The notes under the pieces were generated by a model. The model did no database searches and had not been told where the DNA came from. It saw only the letters and a program-made list of their open reading frames with translations. A program made the translations under genes and the position numbers. A DNA stretch of 63,141 bases, filler included, from Asterionella formosa (Eukaryota): the NCBI GenBank assembly GCA_002256025.1. It is 25 parts of 25 records of this genome, joined end to end, with 100 filler letters (N's around TTAATTAATTAA, not from the genome) between each part and the next. Parts side by side here need not be neighbours in the genome. Positions count along the whole stretch, not along the records: positions 55,688 to 58,106 come from NKIB01015290.1; 24 more parts are not named here. One strand, written 5' to 3'. This document shows positions 3,950 to 59,774 of the stretch, piece after piece (the stretch's first letter is position 1; the number at the start of each line of letters is the position of its first letter).

Positions 3950-4645
3950 TACCGGTATATTTATAGATTGATGTATCGGTAGTATACCGGTACAAAAAAG
4001 AATATAAATACATGTATGAATACCGGGTATTACGACTTAGTATCCTTAGCAACATTTGTACCGGTATAAGGTTAACTGTTATAGTACCTGGTACCGGTAC
4101 ATCAATTGGCGTGGTACCACATACTGTACCATAGGTCAAGAGGTCTATTTTACGCATGCATGCATGGTGGGGTTTGATTTAGTACCTGGTACCTGGTACC
4201 TGGTACCGAGTGTTGTAGCTATGAGGATTTTTTGTTTGCTTCTCAGCCATAGGTACGAATTTCGCCGAATCCTCTGGTGAAGAGCTCGTAGTACCTGGTG
4301 CGTACCGGAAATAGTCCTTGATAACTAATATTCATATCTGAGGTATGCACGTATCTTACAGGCAAAATGCAAATAAATACTATACATACATATATCTTAG
4401 ACTACCGGGTATCCCTGAGCTATAGGTACTGTTCCAGGTAGGTACCAGGTTTCTGGTACCCTTAACTCTATACCACAATGATGTAATGGTTTATACAGTA
4501 CAGGTATTTTTGCTAAATGCAGTGGTACATACCCTGGCATCCTGGTACCTGTAGTACCGGTATTCCTGTCTGTAGTAGACCTACTGGTACCGGTATCCTG
4601 TCTTGTTATTTTAGATACTGGTACTGGTACCAGGTACCAGGTACG
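3950..4645. repeat. Cluster of TACCGGTA and (TACCWGG)n palindromic micro-arrays
   Basis: For example 4181-4208 GTACCTGGTACCTGGTACCTGGTACC and 4616-4643; similar arrays at 301-325, 9337-9355, 16682-16712, 29155-29170, 32961-33006, 57141-57189 and 57885-57980. Confidence 0.9.
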
Positions 4646-7719: not shown

Positions 7720-9115
7720 TCACTTTTCACAATATGAAGGGTACTGATAATGTCAAATATTACAGATTCTATCTCTCGCCTCCCGAGGCTTGAGTCTTTG
7801 GTGGGGGATGAACTTGGACCGAAATCTTCAGCATCAACATCCATTTCTACTTTCTCAATTGAAGTAGATGATGAACCTTTGTTTACCTGTTCCCTCAATC
7901 ATCCAATTTTGGCAGACAATATTCAATATCCTCTGGATTATAACTCCATACATGATAGACAATTGCTGGCTATACAATTGATTCTCAATCAAACAACTCA
8001 TCTCATTCTCAATCAACAAACCAAACACATCCGTTAAGATTTCCCTCTATCAATTTTCATCATATACATTTAATATATTTTTGTGAAGAATCCAGGAGAT
8101 ACTTGACGTATTGTTATTCCTACATCACTATCGAATCCTATTATTTATTGGTATCATCAGATATTAACTCATGTGGGTATGACAAGATTAAATGCCACAG
8201 TTTCTACACATTTTTACTATCCTCCATGAAAAGCAAGAGTGGAACATATTACAAGCATATATGAAACATGTCAAAACGTACAAAATTACCTGGTGCTTGG
8301 TTTTGGTGAACTTCCACCAAGGAATGCATTGTTATTACAATGCTCAGAAGTCACAGTGGATTTCATTGGTCCACGGAAGATAACAGTGACTGCACAAGCG
8401 ATTGAATTTCATGCTCCAACTTGAGTTAACACAGTCACCAATTTACCAGAAATTTCACATATGAATAATAAGACATCAGAATATATTGCGATGAAATTTG
8501 AAAATGATTGGTTAGACAGATATCTCCGTCCAGAAGGTTGTTACATGACAATGGAGGTCAATTTACTGGTATTCCTTTCAGACACATGTAAGTGTTGAAT
8601 GGAATTAAAATTGGAATCATTACAGTCAAGAATCCACAAACAAATGCTATCCGTGAACGTTTATATCAATCTATCAGTAAAAGTCTATGTACAAGTTATG
8701 TTAAAGGCTCATCCTCCAATCAAGGAATTTCAAGTTCAGAATATTGTGGATATCAGTTTGCTGCATCATATGCAGCTTGAGCTACTATTTATAGTACATT
8801 GTGTATTTTCACCAGGTACATGGGTTTTCCAACATGATTTGATTACAGATATGTAATTGATATTGGGATATCAATGTCGATAAGTGATAATTGACAAATG
8901 ACTACGTCGTGATAATTTCCGTCGTCGTTCTTGCAATTACAAGGTTGTTGATGAGGTTTTAATCCTATTGGATAATCCTACTACCTTGGATAACCATGGA
9001 CGAGGTCCTTATTCTATTATTCAAGTATATGCCAATGGTACAGTTACTTTTCAACAAACTATGCATACTACGGAACAAATTAATATTCACTACATCAAAC
9101 CTTTTCAAAGGTAAA
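7720..9115 (+). pseudogene. Gypsy pol remnant (end of RNase H, integrase), many stops and frameshifts
   Basis: NITDSISRLPR, WYHQILTHVGMTRL, VDFIGP, WLDRYLRP, DNGGQF, NPQTNAIRER and GPYSIIQVYANGTV motifs. Confidence 0.85.
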
Positions 9116-9139
9116 AGGTTTTCCCTTGGTGTGGGAGAG

Positions 9140-9336
9140 TGAGCGATCTTGCACATCAATACAGATGTATATAGGGTTAGTGTTATATCATATATGTATC
9201 AGAACTCAATAATGAGAGAACTCGACTAACCCTCATTGTATACTTTGGTGTCGACTTAGAGAATGAGTTACACACAAGGATTAACAAATAAGCTCATATA
9301 TTCAACAAATACTACTACTTCTAGTTAGATACTTCA
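9140..9336 (+). mobile_element. Gypsy 3' LTR (TGAGCG...ATACTTCA), preceded by a polypurine tract
   Basis: Follows the integrase and GTGGGAGAG; homologous to 56946-57140 (minus) and 43824-44022. Confidence 0.85.
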
Positions 9337-9744
9337 CCAGGTACCTGGTCCTGGTGGTCCGATATGAAAACTGCTTTGAACCTACCGGTATATCGAAATT
9401 ATTTTACCGCTTTGAACCTCTATGAGTAGAATAACACGTTTTGTCACGAATTTCTGATAGTTTACAAATCTGAAACGATCCATCAGTGGGCGCGCTCTGA
9501 TAATAAAAAATTATTATATCATGTGTGTATTATAACACAAATTATTCTGGTGATCTGCTACATAATATCGTCCTTGCGCTCTGAAGAGATATTTTAGATT
9601 ACTTCTCTGACATTATATATATTTTTAACTTTAATTTTCAACAGTTAAATTTTCATATCAATGCATCCTCTTGTATGCTATGCCGCCTCTTGTTCATTAT
9701 ATGCATGAGTTCTATATATTCATCATTGTCGGTCACTGACCACC

Positions 9745-16323: not shown

Positions 16324-17159
16324 TGATCATAATGGTTATATTTAGGAGGATCAACTAGTATTTATTATTGTAATTACGGAACTGTTATGTTTTGATTATC
16401 AATTAGTAGGGTACGTTTTTGTTAAACTGTTTGTTGAAATTTACGTTTACACTCTTCTAAATGGATGTTTCCCTGATTATGATACATACATGGTGAGCAA
16501 TGCTCGTTTTGTAAACTTGTTCATTTTGCATACAGAAGGATCCATCAACATGGACATGGAGATGGAGATGAATAGCACACCGTCACTATCTGGGGGTAGC
16601 CGGAATGAAACAAGTCCAAATATAATGTTTGCGCAACAGCAACAAATCAGACATGATTCCTCTGAGAAAGTGATGAGTGAGTACCGGTACCATGTACTGG
16701 TACCAGGTACCTGTCGTATCCCCGTCGTCTTGGTCTACAGTATTAGGTGTTTATTTATATAGAGGAGGATCAGAACAGCTGGATATGTTCCGATCCTGAG
16801 AATTTGAGAAAAAGAAATACGTATGTTTGCATACCAAGTCAATTCAGTGATTACGTATGCACTATTTACGTATGGAATCAGAATCACCCTACAGGAAGAG
16901 AGGAACGGATTAACCATTGGAGATCAGTTTATATCATAATTTTAGTTTACGTTTTACATTTAAACCTTTATTATCCGGTATTGCCACTGAGAATATCGTC
17001 ACTGTTTAAGACGGTTTCTGGACATTGGGCTGTTTCGTCTGCTTCAACATCAACAAGAGAGGCACTGCTGGCAAGTTCGGGATCAACCACAAGTTCAGCA
17101 TTGAATAGTGTTGCAGGTTCCAGCTGGCCTTGTTCACTTCTGAATCTCATGGGTGGCAA

Positions 17160-28875: not shown

Positions 28876-30456
28876 TAAGCCTTAGCCTGTTCACTTTCAT
28901 AGTATGCATTTATCGTACATTTAACAAAATATGTATCATGCACAGAAAATTTCTGTGCCAGTTATCATATGATACCCCTGATCTTATAAGTACGATATAT
29001 ATTTTATTTGCAGACGCGTGAAATCAGCGGGTCGCCAATTTACTGGCTCAAACAGGCATGTATCAACGATCATAAGGAATTTTCCACGTGTATCAACGAT
29101 CATAAGGAATTTTCCACGTAGCGAGGAAGTACGGAGTTTCCCGTACCTCCCTCGTACCTGGTACCAGGTAACGATACAAGGCATAATACATGTACACAAT
29201 ATCATACCGGTAAAATAAAATTAACTTCGGGTATACTCCTATCTACTGTATTTATACCATGTACACAATGTTCAGTTACCAGTATATTGTTTGATTACCG
29301 GTATATACCGTACCCGGTCTCCATCTTCGGACAAATATTCGCAATACCGGTACTCCATCCAATCTTCTGGTAGGGTTTTGATACTAAACAGTATCTGTTT
29401 CGTGGATATAGCTTTGGTGGAGGCCTGTTAGTTAAAGAAGCAACGATTGTGGAGGAAAAGGTAAGCCCATTGTGACTGACATGGTGTCAGAGCTATCACA
29501 ATCCTCGCCGCCTTCATTGTTGATTGTCAACTGTCATTGCTGGAATTTCTTCTAATGATATGCATGTCTTCTTTCATAAACCTCCAAAAGTAGGCACCAG
29601 TTCGCGATTTAGCGCAACATGAAGACAAACAGAAGGCATGAAGAGGAAATAATCTTGGCAACGGAGTTTTGGGTGTTTATCGTTGATCCATTATCATGAT
29701 GTTCAGAGACAGACTGGAGCGGCGATTTGGGATTGCTGTATGGGAAGGAGGCTGTTAGGTGCAGGTGGATACACTTGAAAGTAAATTTGCCTGCTGTCCC
29801 ATGAGGTGTCCAGCCAGCCATATTCAACAATCTTCCGATGTCACCATTCTAATTATTAGGATGACAAACTATTCACTCTTCATGTTCGTAGAAATTGAAT
29901 TAACAAAAATAGACTTTAGTGTTAATCAGCAATGCATCTAGTAGTACTGCTCCTGGATTCACAACAGTACATCTAAGACGCGAAATACGCCACTTTTCGA
30001 AATTTCGTCTACGTATGAGTGTTAATTATGTGGTACTTCACATGCATTAATGCCACTCTTCACGTAAAAAAGATTACTTTTAACTGTTTCATGTGAAGTT
30101 TTAACTGTTTCATGTGAAGTTTTCACAATGAATTTTGAACGCGAGACTGAATTAGTTGATGTTTCAAATAATTCATTTGACTTTTCGAAATTTCGTTTAC
30201 GTACGAGTGTTAATTATGTGGTACTTCACATGCATTAATGCCACTCTTCACGTAAAAAGGTTACTTTTAACGGTTTCATGTGAAGTTTTAACGGTTTCAT
30301 GTGAAGTTTTAACTGTTTCATGTGAAGTTTTNNNNNNNNNNNNNNNNNNNNNNNNNNNNNNNNNNNNNNNNNNNNTTAATTAATTAANNNNNNNNNNNNN
30401 NNNNNNNNNNNNNNNNNNNNNNNNNNNNNNNCACAAGCAACTTCTATCAGGCAAGG

Positions 30457-32716: not shown

Positions 32717-34232
32717 GGTGTTTGTATGATTTGCTACCGAATGAATGCAACAAGATAGTGATATCGACAATTGAAAGAGATTGATGGTGCGGAATGATAA
32801 TTCAGAGTGGCACCTACTTATTGTAAATGAAATATGTACGGTCGTATATACTTATTTATTNNNNNNNNNNNNNNNNNNNNNNNNNNNNNNNNNNNNNNNN
32901 NNNNTTAATTAATTAANNNNNNNNNNNNNNNNNNNNNNNNNNNNNNNNNNNNNNNNNNNNTGGTACCTGGTACTGGTACCTGTTACCAGGGCCAGGTACC
33001 CTGGTAGCGGATTATGACATTTGAGTACGGTAGTACTGTACCCTGCAAGTTGCGGTAAATATACTGATGGTCAGTTACATATGAAATATTTAGCCACAGC
33101 CATAGTGGATTCTTTCTCAATGAATATGCTCGCCTGCTCGAAACTTAACCATGGCAGAACTGGCAGGCTCATCAACGACTTGATTTTCTATGATCGGGTT
33201 TATCAGGCTCCAATTGGTTCAGTTCAATCAAAATACATAAATATTTCGTTGCCTAAAATGAATTATGATGCTATTTTTGTATATGTTTGATGCTAATTAT
33301 ATGTGTCTGACAAGTAGTTGCTGATGTCTGAAAACTATTAGTTTGTGTCTGACAAAAGATTGTCTGATAAGCGCTCCAGTACTGCTGAAGGCAAGAATAC
33401 ACGCCCAAGGTGGTCTCATGCCTGCGATTATACACCAAGAAGGGTATTGTTGAGGCAATTCACAAACTAGCTATTGTCACGCCATTCGCTTACCTAGCTA
33501 CTGCCCACTCATTGAGTGTATATGTCAATTTCAGCTTCCTATAGCCCATCATATAACATATATTTCATATATTTCCTATCTTCACATCAAAATTTGCAAT
33601 GGGTCCGATATTGCCCATCATTAAATATATTTTGTTTACTTCCTATGATCGCATTTTGGTAATACAATTTGCGCCAATTGCCCCTTGGTTTTCACATATT
33701 CATTGATTTTATGTAGTACCTTATGCCCAATTTCGTCCTCACAAATTATACTTCTCACTCTATCCTGCCTGCCATTGCTTAAATCAGGCTAACAACAGGG
33801 ACCTTTCGACTTTTGTTTGAAAACATCTTCTGCTGCTTGTTATGCTAGTTAGAGCGGATCAGTGAGTAAAACAGTGGAACACTGAATGTGGAATGTAGAT
33901 ACTATTTGTCGAATTTCCGATTTGGTTGCTTCCATGGTCCATTTTGATCGGTTCCATTGTTGTTTGTTGTTCTGCAATGTCGTTTTTGCTTGCTCTATTG
34001 TATCTTATACAAGGGCCGATGTATGTATCAATGCCTACTCTTTGAAGAAGTATTGTTCTTCTTTTTTGTTGATTTGTATAGTCATTGACCATGGTGTCAA
34101 TATTCCAGCCAAGCAATGATGCTTTTCTTGTACTAATGCGCTTTGCTACTACCTTTCTACTATGAGGTTTACCTATAAATGTTCCACTAGAGAGAGTCGA
34201 TAGTGGAGCAGCCTGGCGATCATGATTGCTCA

Positions 34233-34262
34233 GAATAGAATGGAATGGAATGGAATGGAATA
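34233..34262 (+). repeat. (GGAAT)n microsatellite
   Basis: GAATAGAATGGAATGGAATGGAATGGAAT. Confidence 0.8.
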
Positions 34263-34865
34263 AAATGATCAGGGTTGTTTGGTGGGAGCAGGAATGACTG
34301 TGGGCCGAAGTTCTCCTGCTTGAACTTGTGTCAGGCTACTACAGCTATGTGCATGGTTGTAGCAACCAGAGCATCTACGCTATGTGACGATGCAGATCTC
34401 AATTGGGTTCAGCTTTTTCTTCTTTTCTTCATCCAAAAACTGTATCAGTGATACACCCATGATACACTGGTGATCAGACCAAAAAAACTATTGGTGATAC
34501 ACACAAAAAACCAAACCGCCAATTTTGCATCGTATTTCGGAGATGATACACCAATGACGACCAATGACAGAATGATAAGAACGGCCCTATAAGGCACTTA
34601 ATTAACAAATGAGGTTATTATTTATATGTCTATTTCCATTTTGACATTCCTCAGACTACATCTAGTCTTCGGACACCTGTCGACATCAACAGCCTAACAG
34701 ACACATTCTGACAGTGATGGGGGGAGGAACAAATTACCGGTATTTGGGAAAGGAGTATTTTTCGTAAATAAACAACATTTACCTCTACCGGTACACCGAG
34801 TAATTGAATTACTCGTTTTATCAGATTTTTGGCAGACAATCGCTATAACCCCGCTCATCGTTGTC

Positions 34866-35389
34866 ATGATCACTACCACGCTTCATTCTATATCGCTCGC
34901 TGATCCTCTGGTGGCGAGGAGTGAGCTCAAGCAAGAAGCAGCAAGCCAAATCGCTGACCAATCAACGAAATCCGGCATTCAACTAAAGCCAGGACGCCTT
35001 TATGATCGCGAAATCGAACAAGAGCAATTGTTGCGTGCGTTTCAACGCATTTCAAGACCGAACTGCCAGAATCGAGAGTTAGTCCTAATAACTGGCTGCA
35101 GTGGCACTGGGAAGACACAGCTCGCACAAGGTCTGAAAGAAAAAGTCGTCGCATCTGGAGGTTTGTTTCTACAAGGAAAATGGGATCAATTTCAAACGCC
35201 TGAACCGTACGCTCCCATCGTGTCAGCATTCACAGAATATGCAAATTTAATTGTTAAGCAAGGGGAAGATAGCGTAGCAGAAATGAAGAAGATTATCGAA
35301 AAGGAAACCGAATCAGACTACCACTTGCTCACTGATATGATTCCGGCATTAAAGCAGATATTGACGGTGGAAACTGCTGGTACAGGGAT
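34866..35389 (+). CDS. AAA_16/STAND-type ATPase (family related to the ATPase module of hybrid Ser/Thr-His kinases), 5' partial
   Basis: LYDRExE...ELVLITGCSGTGKT (Walker A)...GGLFLQGKWDQFQTPEPYAPIVSAF. Confidence 0.85.
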
Positions 35390-39647: not shown

Positions 39648-39742
39648 CAGCAAGTTGCGGTCATTTTGCTTAAACTAACATTTTGATCTGGGATAAAGAT
39701 AGCTAAATCTTTAGTTTCAGCAAAATTACCGCAACTTGCAGG
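39648..39742 (+). mobile_element. MITE of about 95 bp, GCAAGTTGCGGT TIR family
   Basis: CAGCAAGTTGCGGTCATTTTGCTTAAACTAA ... TTAGTTTCAGCAAAATTACCGCAACTTGCAGG; homologue at 43676-43775; related end at 33041. Confidence 0.85.
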
Positions 39743-40545
39743 TGTATTTATATTTGTCCAACAAGCAGGAAATCATTCGACAAAATCATAACAATAAATA
39801 CTAAAGATGAGCTTCACAGGGCATTGTACGGACATCAACAGTCAGGCCAGGCCTTAGCACCTATAGAAGCATTTGAAATTTATGGGCACGATGGGGTAAG
39901 AGAATCACTTTGTTTATCTTTAATCCAAGATGACAGTTGTCAGTCAGGATCTGGTCTTTACCAATATTGGATGAAACCAATTTGGCTATAAGCTCATGAG
40001 CTAATGGTTAAAGGTTAGATGTAGCATCGTTATACGATGCTACAAATTGTTTTGATTTCAGGTCGAAGGAGTCGATCTTATGATGATGATGTGTGACATG
40101 AGGAAAAAAGGGAGATGTGATAAATACCGGTAGACAAACCCCATGATACGTAATTTTGTTGTTAACGAGCGAGGCCCACGGAACATCATTATCATCATTT
40201 TTGTTGCACGCGCAATTAGGAAATAACGAAAGTGTTAAAATATTATCATAGTTGCACTTATCGGATAGCTTCTCTGAGAATCTCTACGTGTCTCGCGTCC
40301 TCTTTTCTCGTGATTCAAGGGGGCAATCTTTGGTTGATTCGTTCAGTTCATGGAAAGAGAATCATAGAAGAACCGAACGTCATTGGGAGTGATGCAAAAC
40401 GAGAAAATAGGGCGGAATCGAACGAACCATAAACAATCATCCACGNNNNNNNNNNNNNNNNNNNNNNNNNNNNNNNNNNNNNNNNNNNNTTAATTAATTA
40501 ANNNNNNNNNNNNNNNNNNNNNNNNNNNNNNNNNNNNNNNNNNNN

Positions 40546-43675: not shown

Positions 43676-43775
43676 CCAGCAAGTTGCGGTCATTTTACTT
43701 AAATAAAAATTTTAATATCGGATAAAGATAGCTAAACTTTTAGTTTCAGCATAATTACCGCAGCCAACTTGCAGG
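43676..43775 (+). mobile_element. 100-bp MITE with TA target duplication, CCAG...CAGG ends
   Basis: TA|CCAGCAAGTTGCGGT...ACCGCAGCCAACTTGCAGG|TA. Confidence 0.85.
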
Positions 43776-43823
43776 TATCATCATTCAATGGGGAACATTA
43801 CCACAAACATTACCAGTACAAGG

Positions 43824-44022
43824 TGAGCAATCGTGCTCAACTACAGACACACCTACAGAGTTAGGTTTACACAGATTTATCAGAACTCTCTCAGGAGAGA
43901 ACTTGACTAAAACCTATTTGAATACTTTAGTGTCAACCTAGGAGATCGAGTTGCACACAAGGATTACCTAATAAGCTCATATAGCTATTCAATAAATACT
44001 ACTGCTTCTGATTAGTTAGCTA
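43824..44022 (+). mobile_element. Diverged Gypsy LTR (same family as 9140-9336), cut at its 3' end by a CATCTAAG element
   Basis: TGAGCAATC start; shared GAGAGAAC.YGACTAA, CACACAAGGATTA and ATAAGCTCATAT...AATACTACT blocks. Confidence 0.75.
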
Positions 44023-55687: not shown

Positions 55688-56900
55688 ACCACTGAAATTT
55701 CCTGGGCAGATGTATTCTCGGTTGGATCGGCACGTGGCACGGTACCCCAACCGGATGGACGAGTATTATGACTCGATGTATTTAACATACGAGCATGTGG
55801 AACAGGCACAGGGTGAGCAGTGTCAGTATGATAGCTTTCCGTAGGATTGCTGTGTGCACCGCCTCCACGACCACCAAAATGTCCTCGTCTACCAAAACTG
55901 GAACGGCCATATCCATTTAGACGACCAGCCATGCGACCTGCTCGACCACCTTGAGTACGAGGATTCTGGAAACAATTGCCCCAAGTATGTACACCTTCAG
56001 GATGCACCGGGCAAGGACCACGATAATCATGGTACATACGACTGGCTTGTAGAGCTTGATGACGAACAGTTGCCTGAAGATCCCATGCGCGTCCGGCTGC
56101 ATTGACAATAGCACGCGCCCTTCACGACCACTTGGAGTAAAATAATCCTTGTAGAATTGACTACTGACACGCTCGTTTTCTTGATGCATCACACGATTGC
56201 CTTCAGCAATGCGAAGACGGTTCTGTGTGATTATTTGAAAACTGTTCTTGGGAAGATGCTTGTTTCGATCCTTAAACGATTGTTGACTCTCGAAGTAAGA
56301 GAGAACCGAGCGAATCGATTGGTCTGAAGTCTTTGCATGATTTAATTCAAACTCTTGTTGCCACTCATCGGGCATAGAACGGATAATGATAATCCGTATA
56401 TCTTCTTTTGACAATCCAACTTGATCTTCTGGATGAGGCATTAGTTGAAGTAGCCTGTTTAAAGTTTTAATACGAGCTCCGAAATCCATTACCAACATAG
56501 AAAAGGGTTTAGATAAATAACGTAGCATCCATTGTCATTGATGTTGAAAACTCTCATTTGGTAAACGATCGTCTAACCATAAAACCATCGCTTCATCGAA
56601 ACTATTGTAAGATTGATCTTCTGGGTGTACTTCCACATTCAACCAATCCGATAAGGCAATGTCTGTCAAACACCTTTTAAAGTAGGAAAAGGTATCTGCA
56701 GGGCTAAAGGCACATGTGTTAGCCATGTCACGAAATTGACTCACTCCAATTAACAATGCTTCCACTGAGCTTCCATCGATCATATCTTGATCAAACGATT
56801 CAAACCTTCCACCGGTTAAAGCAACTCTGAACCTTTTAGTCTTGATGGTCAATAAATTGTAGTCTTTGATCAAAGGAATCACAGGAACCCTTGAATACAT
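55688..56900 (-). pseudogene. Gypsy gag remnant
   Basis: LRYLSKPFSM, SMPDEWQQEF and a CPVHPEGVHTWGNC (CX2HX4HX4C) knuckle; directly downstream of an LTR. Confidence 0.8.
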
Positions 56901-56945
56901 TGCCAAGTTTGTTGTCTTCTAATTCGAATCTTTTTGAATTCAAAG

Positions 56946-57140
56946 TGAAGTATCTAACTTGAAGTAGTAGTATTTATTGAATATATGAGCTTATAAATTA
57001 ATCCTTATGTACAACTCATTTCCTGAACTGTAATCAAAGTATAGAATGGATGTTAGTCGGGTTCTCTCATTATTGAATTCCGATGTATTTGATATAACCC
57101 TAACTCTATATATATCTGTATCGATGTGCAGGATTGCTCA
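56946..57140 (-). mobile_element. Gypsy 5' LTR (195 bp)
   Basis: Minus strand TGAGCAATC...GTTAGATACTTCA, homologous to 9140-9336. Confidence 0.85.
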
Positions 57141-57189
57141 CCAGGTACCTGGTACTCCGGAATACCTGGTACTGGTACCTGGTACCAGG

Positions 57190-57849
57190 AGTTGGTAGAT
57201 GCTACGTATCTGTAGCTCTCACGCAGTAAAATTTGCTAGAAAAATGTTTCTACACAATTTGTTTGTTTTACTTTGTTTGCTAATAATTGTTTTTATAAAA
57301 GAGTGAGCTTAATGTAAATGTAAATTTGAATGTATGATTTTGAAACTTCCAAGCTCATGCATGTTTCAAAATAGAGGGGATCTTCGGAGGCGAGGTTCAT
57401 TTGTGTTCCCAACTTGAACTGAGAATAAACTACATCCTCTTCCTAAATACACATTTGTCTTAATCTTGGCCTGTCTCAACTTAGGCCAGATGCTGTTTGA
57501 TCGAAGACTGCTTACAGAATGATCCTGTTAATCATAGCTAGATCATATCTAGTTTGCTTCTTTAATGTTCCTTGATGTTACGGACATATCTGTAATTGTC
57601 TAGTCAATCATTTATTGATTTGGCTTCTAGGTCTGATCGTCTTCTAGAGTCCAATTAACAGGTTAGAGAGAACTTCTCCGGAAAGTTCCTCTCTCAACTG
57701 TGGCATTTTACACGCGATATTTAACCATGTAATCTTGAATCAATCATCTAGTGGATTGTGGTACATGTTCCTAATCAGGTCACTAGAGGCGAAAATATAT
57801 TGACACTCATAACCTGATCAGGAATCAGGAATCTCTATGTGTTTCAACT
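57190..57849. mobile_element. 660-bp solo-LTR-like insertion with AGTTG...CAACT ends and a CCAGG target duplication
   Basis: CCAGG (57185-57189)|AGTTG ... CAACT|CCAGG (57850-57854); no ORF; internal hairpins. Confidence 0.72.
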
Positions 57850-58206
57850 CCAGGTAGCAGGGAGTACAACCTGTGTGTTACAAGGGTACCTGGTATTCAG
57901 TGACGGTACTTGGTACCTGGTACCAGTGCTGGTACCAGGTATATGGTTGTCAACGGGTACCTGGTACCAGGCACCGGTATTTAACGCCTGCTATGTTCCG
58001 GTTCCTCTGTGAAGGATGCGGTTAAATGACAAATCAGTGTGATGAACACATGCATACCACTCGGTAAGTAGAAATTCTAGTTTACTGGACAAACATAAAC
58101 GGAGTANNNNNNNNNNNNNNNNNNNNNNNNNNNNNNNNNNNNNNNNNNNNTTAATTAATTAANNNNNNNNNNNNNNNNNNNNNNNNNNNNNNNNNNNNNN
58201 NNNNNN

Positions 58207-59774
58207 TACCAACAAGCTACGATGAAGCAATGGCAAGACCAGACAAGAAAGAGTGGATCAAGGCGATCAACAAAGAATATGAAAACTTCCAGTCGAGAGG
58301 AGTGTGGAAAGTTATCAAACGTGATACTGTTAAGAAGCGAACACTAAAAACGAGATGGGTGTTTCGAATTAAAGAAGATGTGTTAACCGGGAAGACCATT
58401 TACAAGGCAAGATTGGTCGTGAAGGGATATGAGCAAATCCCAGGTGTCGATTTTACTGAGACATTTGCTCCAGTTGCAAGCGATGCGACAATCAAAACGG
58501 TACTCGCAGTGACGATGTACAACGGTTGGCGAGCGGAGGCTATTGATGTGGAAGCAGCATTTCTAAATGCTGACGTCGATGAGGACATTTATATTGAGCC
58601 CCCTCAAGGTTTGATCGGAGTCGATTCCGATACACATGTTTGCAAGCTTGTGAAGGCTATGTACGGGATAGTACAAGCTCCACGATGCTGGTCCAGGACG
58701 TTTGCGAAATGTGTCACCAATAAACCAGGTATGACGAAGAGCAAGATCGACCCTATGTTATTTATGCACCGGAACAAGGATGGACAAATTGATGGTCTAC
58801 TTGTTAATTACGTGGATGACGGTATTGTATGTGGGACTCCAAGTGCAGTGGAGTATATGAAAAATGTTATCAAGGAAGATTTCAATATTACCGAGCAGGG
58901 TATTCTACAGAAACACCTAGGAGTGGAATATGCTTGGAAAGAGGACAAGTATGGTGAATACTGGGAGGTGCAAATGCAGAAATTTCGTATGCAACTTCTA
59001 CGCGAATACGAGAAGTTGACCGGTATGAAAATTAAGTCGTACGCAACGCCGGGCGTACCAGGAAAGACATTGAACAAGAATGACGGTGAAGTCATTATGG
59101 AAGGAGAATATCGAAAAATTGTGGGCAAGTTACTATGGTCTACAAAGAAGGATTCGCCGGACTGTGCGAATGCGGTTCGGGAACTATCGGCTCATTTAAG
59201 TTGCCCAGGTGAAGAACAATGGCATGCAGTGGCAAGAGTCATTGGTTACCTATCCAATATGGAGGATAGAGTTCTCAAGTTGCGTAAGCCAAAAGAGTTA
59301 AGAGTCATTGCCTACGTGGACAGTGACTGGGCTGCTAATAAGGTTAACAGGAAGAGCACGACTGGCTATCTTGTTACTATTGGTGGGGCACTTATCAGTT
59401 GGCAGTCGAAGGGACAACAAACGGTTACGCTGTCCAGCACGGAAGCCGAGTATGTGGCGATGTCCCAGTGTGGACAAGAGATCAAGTTTATAGCAATGCT
59501 ACTGAATGAGGTTACTGCGAGAAGACAATACAGGAGCTATTTTTATCGCGAAGAATCAGCAAATCGGAACCAGGACAAAACATATTGATATTAAGTATCA
59601 TCATGTAAAGGACATGATTGAGGATGAAGAATTGGAAGTCATTTTTATAAGGTCGGAAGATAATTTTGCGGACATTATGACCAAGAACATGAAGGAACAG
59701 ATACATACGAGATTGTCTGAACCAGTTCAGAGTGGAACGATGTTACAGCCTCTTGAGCGTGGCAATGGGGAGGA
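58207..59774 (+). mobile_element. Copia RT and RNase H (same family as 35490-37918), frameshifting deletion in RNase H
   Basis: YVDD, YVDSDWA, LSSTEAEY, EDNTGAI..RTKHIDIKYH; the first about 517 nt are nearly identical to 37402-37918. Confidence 0.95.

Follow-up and report, generated by a model that had tools for sequence, protein, structure and literature searches.

What is the 660-bp segment that separates two parts of a short palindromic array in Asterionella formosa, and how did it come to lie there? The window, i.e., the whole stretch of 63,141 nucleotides that was analysed (positions 1-63141), consists of 25 contigs of 2416-2442 bp each, arranged by descending length and joined by linkers of the form N44-TTAATTAATTAA-N44. 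Because the contigs are chained by linkers, features that flank a linker are not genomic neighbours. Both the 660-bp unit and the LTR beside it, which belongs to a second element (element A), lie in contig 23 (55688-58106), and their true context is therefore limited to 2.4 kb. The DNA of the window is eukaryotic and rich in transposons, with Copia reverse transcriptase, integrase and gag fragments and many shared repeats, and contains no tRNA genes. The contig that follows contig 23 carries a Ty1/Copia reverse transcriptase (RVT_2, E 1e-44) at 58209-59585, which is 99.4% identical over 518 bp to 37401-37918 in contig 15 and thus suggests a young Copia family. Additionally, contigs 17 and 21 are 97.7% identical along their entire 2.4 kb.

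The unit and the surrounding array

The 660-bp unit begins with AGTTG (57190-57194) and ends with CAACT (57845-57849), which form a 5-bp inverted pair with unpaired sixth bases, and a perfect CCAGG abuts it on both sides (Table 1), both as an earlier note on this DNA had described. The same note had called the unit free of open reading frames, and its longest stop-to-stop frame lying wholly inside is 53 aa. Two hairpins that had been pointed out within the unit both fold better than shuffled sequences on the plus strand, with z = -3.5 for the first (57460-57495) and z = -2.4 for the second (57655-57705). The first hairpin is identical in two metagenome copies of the unit (contigs L001 and L002, described below). 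In L001, 13 nt are missing from one arm of the second, which is thus not conserved, and we attach no function to it. In BLASTN searches (word size 9, E up to 1), the unit has no likeness to the neighbouring LTR, to which it had been said to be unrelated, or to the rest of the window, and the window holds no second copy of it.

The array to the left of the unit (57141-57189) contains five CCWGG and three GGTACC palindromes. The claim that this array resumes after 57850 stands for the clean units at 57885-57971, whereas the first 30 bp past the duplication (57855-57884) show only a degenerate continuation. The 13-mer GGTACCWGGTACC occurs nine times in the window versus 0 times in 100 shuffles, and once in each of L001 and L002; array cores are present in 7 of the 25 contigs. 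The only Rfam match in 55688-58106 at E up to 1, mir-992, falls on the palindromic array at 57897-57983 (27 and 21 bits; gathering score 79) and was rejected as chance.

With the boundaries given, identical 5-mers on both sides of the unit would be expected by our own arithmetic with p ~1/1024 in random sequence, and the CCAGG pair with p ~1/14 if the flanks are unrelated pieces of a 7-bp array. The pair is nevertheless more than chance, because the boundaries are set independently by other copies of the unit.

Table 1. Coordinates of the unit, the array and related features in the window and in one metagenome contig
Feature	Position	Strand	Basis
Probable 660-bp solo LTR, AGTTG...CAACT, of an unclassified high-copy LTR family (family B)	57190..57849	- (inferred from the purine-tract flank in other copies)	sequence; copy boundaries in four runs; L001/L002 likeness; no ORF >53 aa
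Target-site duplication, left copy, CCAGG	57185..57189	.	sequence
Target-site duplication, right copy, CCAGG	57850..57854	.	sequence
GGTACCWGG-type array, left part, between the two LTRs	57141..57189	.	motif counts; 13-mer GGTACCWGGTACC at 57174
GGTACCWGG-type array, right part (degenerate 57855-57884, clean units 57885-57971)	57855..57971	.	13-mers at 57912 and 57956
Short arrays of GGTACC, CCWGG and TACCGGTA palindromes	305-324, 4087-4641, 9337-9348, 16699-16711, 29157-29168, 32962-33000, 57141-57971		sequence
MITE of ~100 bp, inverted ends beginning CAAGTTGCGG	39648-39743, 43677-43776, half copy at 33043; L001 417-518		duplications CAG/CAG, CAG/CAG, CTG/CTG
Element A, 5' LTR, 195 bp, TG...CA, outer end abutting CCAGG 57141-57145	56946..57140	-	copies 9140-9336 (83%) and 43811-44008 (74%); X1 loose ends at 57141
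Element A, gag region, decayed, cut by contig end	55688..56918	-	235 library proteins at E up to 0.001; tblastn
Element A, second copy of 3' end (contig 4): integrase remnant 8107-9111, purine tract 9128-9139, LTR 9140-9336, then CCAGGTACCTGG 9337-9348	8107..9348	+	tblastn E 8e-36; alignment; sequence

Other copies of the unit and its reading as a solo LTR

Parts of 57100-57990 are contained in 20 of the 24 public runs listed, which comprise freshwater, riverine and lake samples and a coded organism A. Most of these runs hold about 0.6 of the sampled words, close to the share expected for the 660-bp unit without its flanks (660/891 bases). Four runs (X1, X2, X3 and X15) were aligned to the whole contig 55688-58106, and in all four the copies break exactly at 57190 and 57849/50. 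In X1, 49,137 contigs match the 2,419-base contig at 90-100% likeness, with 31 loose ends before 57190 and 11 behind 57849. The flank agreement of these loose ends is 0.47 and 0.49, respectively, indicating many different neighbours. The summed contig depth of X1 over the unit, a measure that is not a copy number, exceeds that over 57956-58106 by about two orders of magnitude.

X2, X3 and X15 (an RNA library), which come from three studies, each provide a single contig containing the unit, which there shows 4, 3 and 6 differences, respectively (99.1-99.5% identity); the matches end at 57190 and/or 57850. In the 3,180-nt contig of X3, the unit lies at 769-1429. As 4 and 3 of 661 places differ from the X2 and X3 contigs, the window copy has diverged little from the main form of the family. 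X2 and X3 agree in the left flank of the unit, and X2, X3 and X15 agree in the right one. X2 and X3 have no cover at 57875-58106 and X15 has none outside 57220-57850, gaps that prove nothing.

A metagenome scan yielded two short contigs. L002 has a different, gene-like left flank and then the unit from AGTTGG onwards (94% alike over 344 columns), and L001 carries the right 400 bp of the unit at 89%, followed by a different right flank. The 5-mers that flank the unit in L002 and L001, TCATG and ACATG, are alike in 4 of 5 positions if both contigs come from one locus. L002 also contains a perfect palindrome at 577-609, with 16-nt arms, one central base and the core GGTACCAGGTACC, directly after a transporter-like open frame (L002 53-658, labelled from reading its translation) and 72 bp before the LTR copy. 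Exact 22-mer scans of the viral and prokaryote collections (viral_contigs and genome_contigs) gave 0 matches each. The earlier note had named differing boundaries in other copies and a single-copy segment as refuting outcomes, and these data show neither: the loose ends gather at 57190 and 57849/50, L002 starts at AGTTGG, and the many X1 loose ends with diverse flanks show that the unit is not single-copy. Independent copies of the repeat share both ends, as those of an LTR do.

In the metatranscriptome X15, the contig of 704 nt consists of the unit part 57220-57850 and 73 nt of the purine-tract flank. RNA libraries of four studies (six runs) contain 33-51% of the sampled words. Family B may be transcribed in nature; DNA carry-over is possible. 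The start of the X15 contig at 57220, 30 nt short of the unit end, was considered as a sign of polyadenylation there, which would give a U5 of 30 nt; this reading was dropped, since it is one contig only and DNA can be present in RNA libraries.

We put the probability that 57190-57849 is a solo LTR, derived from a high-copy family of LTR retrotransposons (family B), at about 0.8. This agrees with the proposal of the earlier note of a solo LTR with non-canonical AG...CT ends, which draws support from the fixed copy boundaries, the copy number, the purine-tract flank of other copies and the inclusion of AGT/ACT in the unit. The 5-bp CCAGG/CCAGG duplication around the unit lies within the 4-6 bp of LTR elements. 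Beyond 57849, the X2, X3 and X15 contigs share a flank whose minus strand ends in nine purines, GAGAGGGAG, directly before AGTTG. Within the 30 nt of flank seen, this run has the place of a polypurine tract. Since this tract adjoins 57849 on the minus strand, the unit is likely in minus orientation. Element A has the same layout, with GGGAGAG abutting its LTR at 9139/9140. AGT and ACT are common to the window copy, the X2 and X3 contigs and L002 and are therefore part of the unit; their sharing at both ends by chance would have a probability of ~1/4096 (our own arithmetic).

We infer that shallow assemblies of a high-copy LTR element lose the rare host flanks and connect the LTR to the internal 3' end or 5' start, which would yield conserved flanks such as those in X2, X3 and X15. 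The window copy, in turn, has the array on both sides and a perfect duplication, which argues that it is a solo LTR. Searches of the window with short motifs from either conserved flank, allowing up to 2 and 3 mismatches, gave 0 hits, and the window thus lacks the internal part of family B. As only 30 nt of each conserved flank are seen, the flanks could belong to another repeat with a nested copy of the unit. In the window, in its alignments to the four runs and in the two metagenome contigs, no full-length element of family B was found, be it as an LTR pair or with a reverse transcriptase or integrase. The runs aligned contain no clean empty site for the unit. A joint between 57189 and 57905 in two X1 contigs was considered as an empty allele and rejected as another array locus, because 13 other letters lie between the two sides and the short side is 22.

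In the simplest mechanism, the integrase of family B would have cut CCAGG with a 5-bp stagger and joined a full-length cDNA to it. The two LTRs would then have recombined unequally, with loss of the internal part, leaving one LTR with the duplication intact. The retention of AGT/ACT in integrated copies suggests that the integrase joins the ...CAACT-3' end rather than a ...CA-3' end.

One difficulty lies in the ends of the unit. They read AG...CT, with TG and CA at positions 4-5, three bases inside, and the terminal 5'-TG...CA-3' of LTRs is thus absent. Because non-TGCA LTRs exist, AG...CT ends weaken the membership of the unit among LTRs without excluding it. Additionally, the left conserved flank in X2 and X3 starts with TGG only when the terminal T of the unit is included, and in our own reading its remainder lacks the usual T-arm pattern, unlike a standard tRNA 3'-end complement. 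These ends and the lack of a recognisable tRNA-type primer binding site in the X2/X3 flank would suit an LTR-like repeat at the ends of an unusual or non-autonomous retroelement, of the LARD/TRIM type or of the DIRS/Ngaro type, in place of a standard autonomous Copia or Gypsy element, as would the fact that the coding part of family B is not seen in any data examined. We consider such an origin unlikely, given that the perfect 5-bp duplication and the adjoining purine tract fit LTR elements inserted by an integrase; tyrosine-recombinase elements are not known to make such a target duplication.

Inverted ends, a direct duplication and the lack of an ORF are also features of a non-autonomous, MITE-like cut-and-paste DNA transposon, which would have 5-bp terminal inverted repeats and a 5-bp duplication and depend on a transposase encoded elsewhere, and another MITE family does use these arrays (see below). 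However, terminal inverted repeats of at least about 10 bp, as seen in MITEs and other elements with such ends, are not present; those of the unit span only 5 bp, and the sixth bases are unpaired. Moreover, three runs from three studies repeat the conserved flanks of the unit, one being a purine tract; this arrangement fits an LTR between internal sequences and not a dispersed MITE, and makes a DNA transposon quite improbable here. Finally, that no insertion took place, the segment being unique sequence between array patches or break-repair filler DNA with CCAGG microhomology, is very improbable: such arrays are patchy elsewhere (e.g., 4087-4641) and the X1 joint described above connects array to array, albeit with its 13 other letters, but both end points recur in other copies, whose neighbours are diverse, and the X1 summed depth, not itself a copy number, is far higher over the unit than beyond it.

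Element A and the array as a possible shared target

On the other side of the left array part, the LTR of element A continues into a decayed gag region, whose frame is interrupted by a TGA at 56535-56537 and changes near 56121. In nearly all X1 contigs, position 56537 is G, giving CGA instead of TGA, and the TGA looks like a CpG-to-TpG change in the window copy. The minus-strand frames of 56918-55688 match 235 library proteins at E up to 0.001. A domain scan covered eight of these 235 proteins, among them P0085 (1501 aa), in which RVT_1, RT_RNaseH and Integrase_H2C2 score above the curated cut-offs and in Ty3/Gypsy order; its rve match is weaker (28 bits versus a cut-off of 32.6). Two others of the eight have one gag domain and weak reverse transcriptase and protease matches, respectively. 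In tblastn, residues 27-289 of P0085 align with 56882-56142 (E 9e-12; gag) and residues 1162-1500 with 8107-9111 (E 8e-36), where the integrase remnant ends 28 bp before the LTR at 9140-9336. Gag and integrase hence match one RVT_1-RNaseH-integrase polyprotein, and these sequence matches support the assignment of element A, and with it of the adjacent LTR, to Ty3/Gypsy, as had been claimed. A Pfam search of six gag-like ORFs from contigs 22 and 23 left the window gag unnamed and named only the Copia reverse transcriptase of the next contig. For the integrase fragments at 8230-9111, Pfam returned only rve_3 with E 0.021, below the cut-off.

In X1, 51 loose ends at 57141 lead into the internal 3' end of element A. 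X1 has 28 loose ends, and X2 has one of 255 nt, that depart from the window sequence just before 56917, which indicates that most copies with the LTR and leader of element A continue into sequence other than the gag start seen in the window. This departure could reflect a second subfamily or a rearranged copy.

The outer LTR end of element A lies 44 bp from the family B unit and abuts CCAGG. Two different elements in one array had been proposed, and indeed both the unit and this unrelated Ty3/Gypsy LTR abut CCAGG. CCAGG is found at all three element-to-host junction sites of the window, i.e., on both sides of the family B unit and at 57141 and 9337 of element A. All three share one phase of the 7-bp unit, and CCWGG occupies 0.19% of window positions. 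The locus of L001 and L002, with its TCATG and ACATG, shows that CCWGG is not obligatory. When the same short palindromic duplication is looked for, CCAGG appears at 3/3 window sites and (T/A)CATG at L001/L002, too few sites to establish sequence specificity.

The independent junctions lie 0 bp (9337), 20 bp (L001) and 72 bp (L002) from the nearest array or 13-mer. As background, array cores take up 0.56% of positions in the 24 other contigs, and zones extending 25 bp and 80 bp from a core take up 1.2% and 2.5%, respectively. The closeness of the junctions to arrays is suggestive and, with so few junctions, not proof. With less certainty than for the solo LTR, we take the array to be a site where both LTR families land by preference.

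The ~100-bp MITE lies in a GTA(C)-CWG context in all three complete copies (GTA(C)/CWG ... CWG/GT, the slashes marking the junctions) and in the one half copy, which indicates that it inserted in the same array motif. Among the ORFs of contig 32961-35389, beside the half MITE, no transposase-like frame stood out. We tentatively propose, at somewhat below even odds, that three or more unrelated families, namely Ty3/Gypsy, the AG...CT LTR family and the ~100-bp CWG MITE, use the dispersed GGTACCWGGTACC microsatellite as a common landing pad; this proposal rests on four LTR-to-host junctions, which represent three or four loci, and on the three complete copies of the MITE. Both LTR families cut in the same phase, TA/CCWGG/TA. 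Such cutting could arise if DDE integrases recognise the palindrome directly, or its bent or extruded DNA. Alternatively, a host protein on the array might tether the integrases; Sap1 tethers Tf1.

Comparison with known systems and significance

Like solo LTRs of Ty3/Gypsy and Ty1/Copia elements, the family B unit is multi-copy, non-coding and a few hundred bp long, with short inverted ends, a 5-bp duplication and a purine tract beside one end in other copies. Unlike them, it has AG...CT ends, with TG and CA three bases inside. Non-TGCA ends are on record for LTR retrotransposons of plants, including Tos17 (TG..GA), AtRE1 (TA..TA) and TARE1 (TA..CA), and the part of the LTR_retriever study drawn on here lists seven non-TGCA motifs from 50 plant genomes, with a seemingly invariable first T (10.1101/137141). 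These plant elements, so far as that part describes them, share 5-bp duplications and non-canonical end dinucleotides with family B. In contrast, the first base of family B is A, AG...CT is outside the list of seven motifs, and the host is not a land plant.

With regard to target choice, Drosophila errantiviruses of the gypsy, ZAM and Idefix groups integrate into the palindromic sequences TATA, CGCG and ATAT, and the excerpt of the source used here calls sequence-specific integration exclusive to errantiviruses and their derivatives (PMC5408687). The elements of the window resemble errantiviruses, as portrayed in that excerpt, in their short palindromic duplications, with the near-palindrome CCWGG at 3/3 window junctions; they differ in the (T/A)CATG of the other locus and in having no env, and they are not known to be related to that clade. 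NuwaI transposons of the PIF/Harbinger-ISL2EU-Spy superfamily, described mainly from animals in the section consulted, make CWG duplications (PMC4482050). On that description, the ~100-bp MITE, and not the 660-bp unit, is like NuwaI in its three CWG duplications (Table 1), and unlike the mainly animal NuwaI in that no transposase was found for it. Judged by titles and the starts of abstracts, the literature found describes no LTR element that targets CCWGG or a microsatellite; other reports may exist.

The 660-bp unit is very probably a leftover LTR and, as such, ordinary transposon biology, and what is unusual is its end motif and, possibly, the shared landing site. Integrated AG...CT ends would mean an integrase that joins the ...CAACT-3' end, and LTR finders that demand TG...CA would miss family B. 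A shared landing site could explain how a short array became a transposon nest and an assembly breakpoint, since all of it lies in unplaced 2.4-kb contigs. If true genome-wide, this would represent sequence- or structure-directed integration outside the Drosophila errantiviruses.
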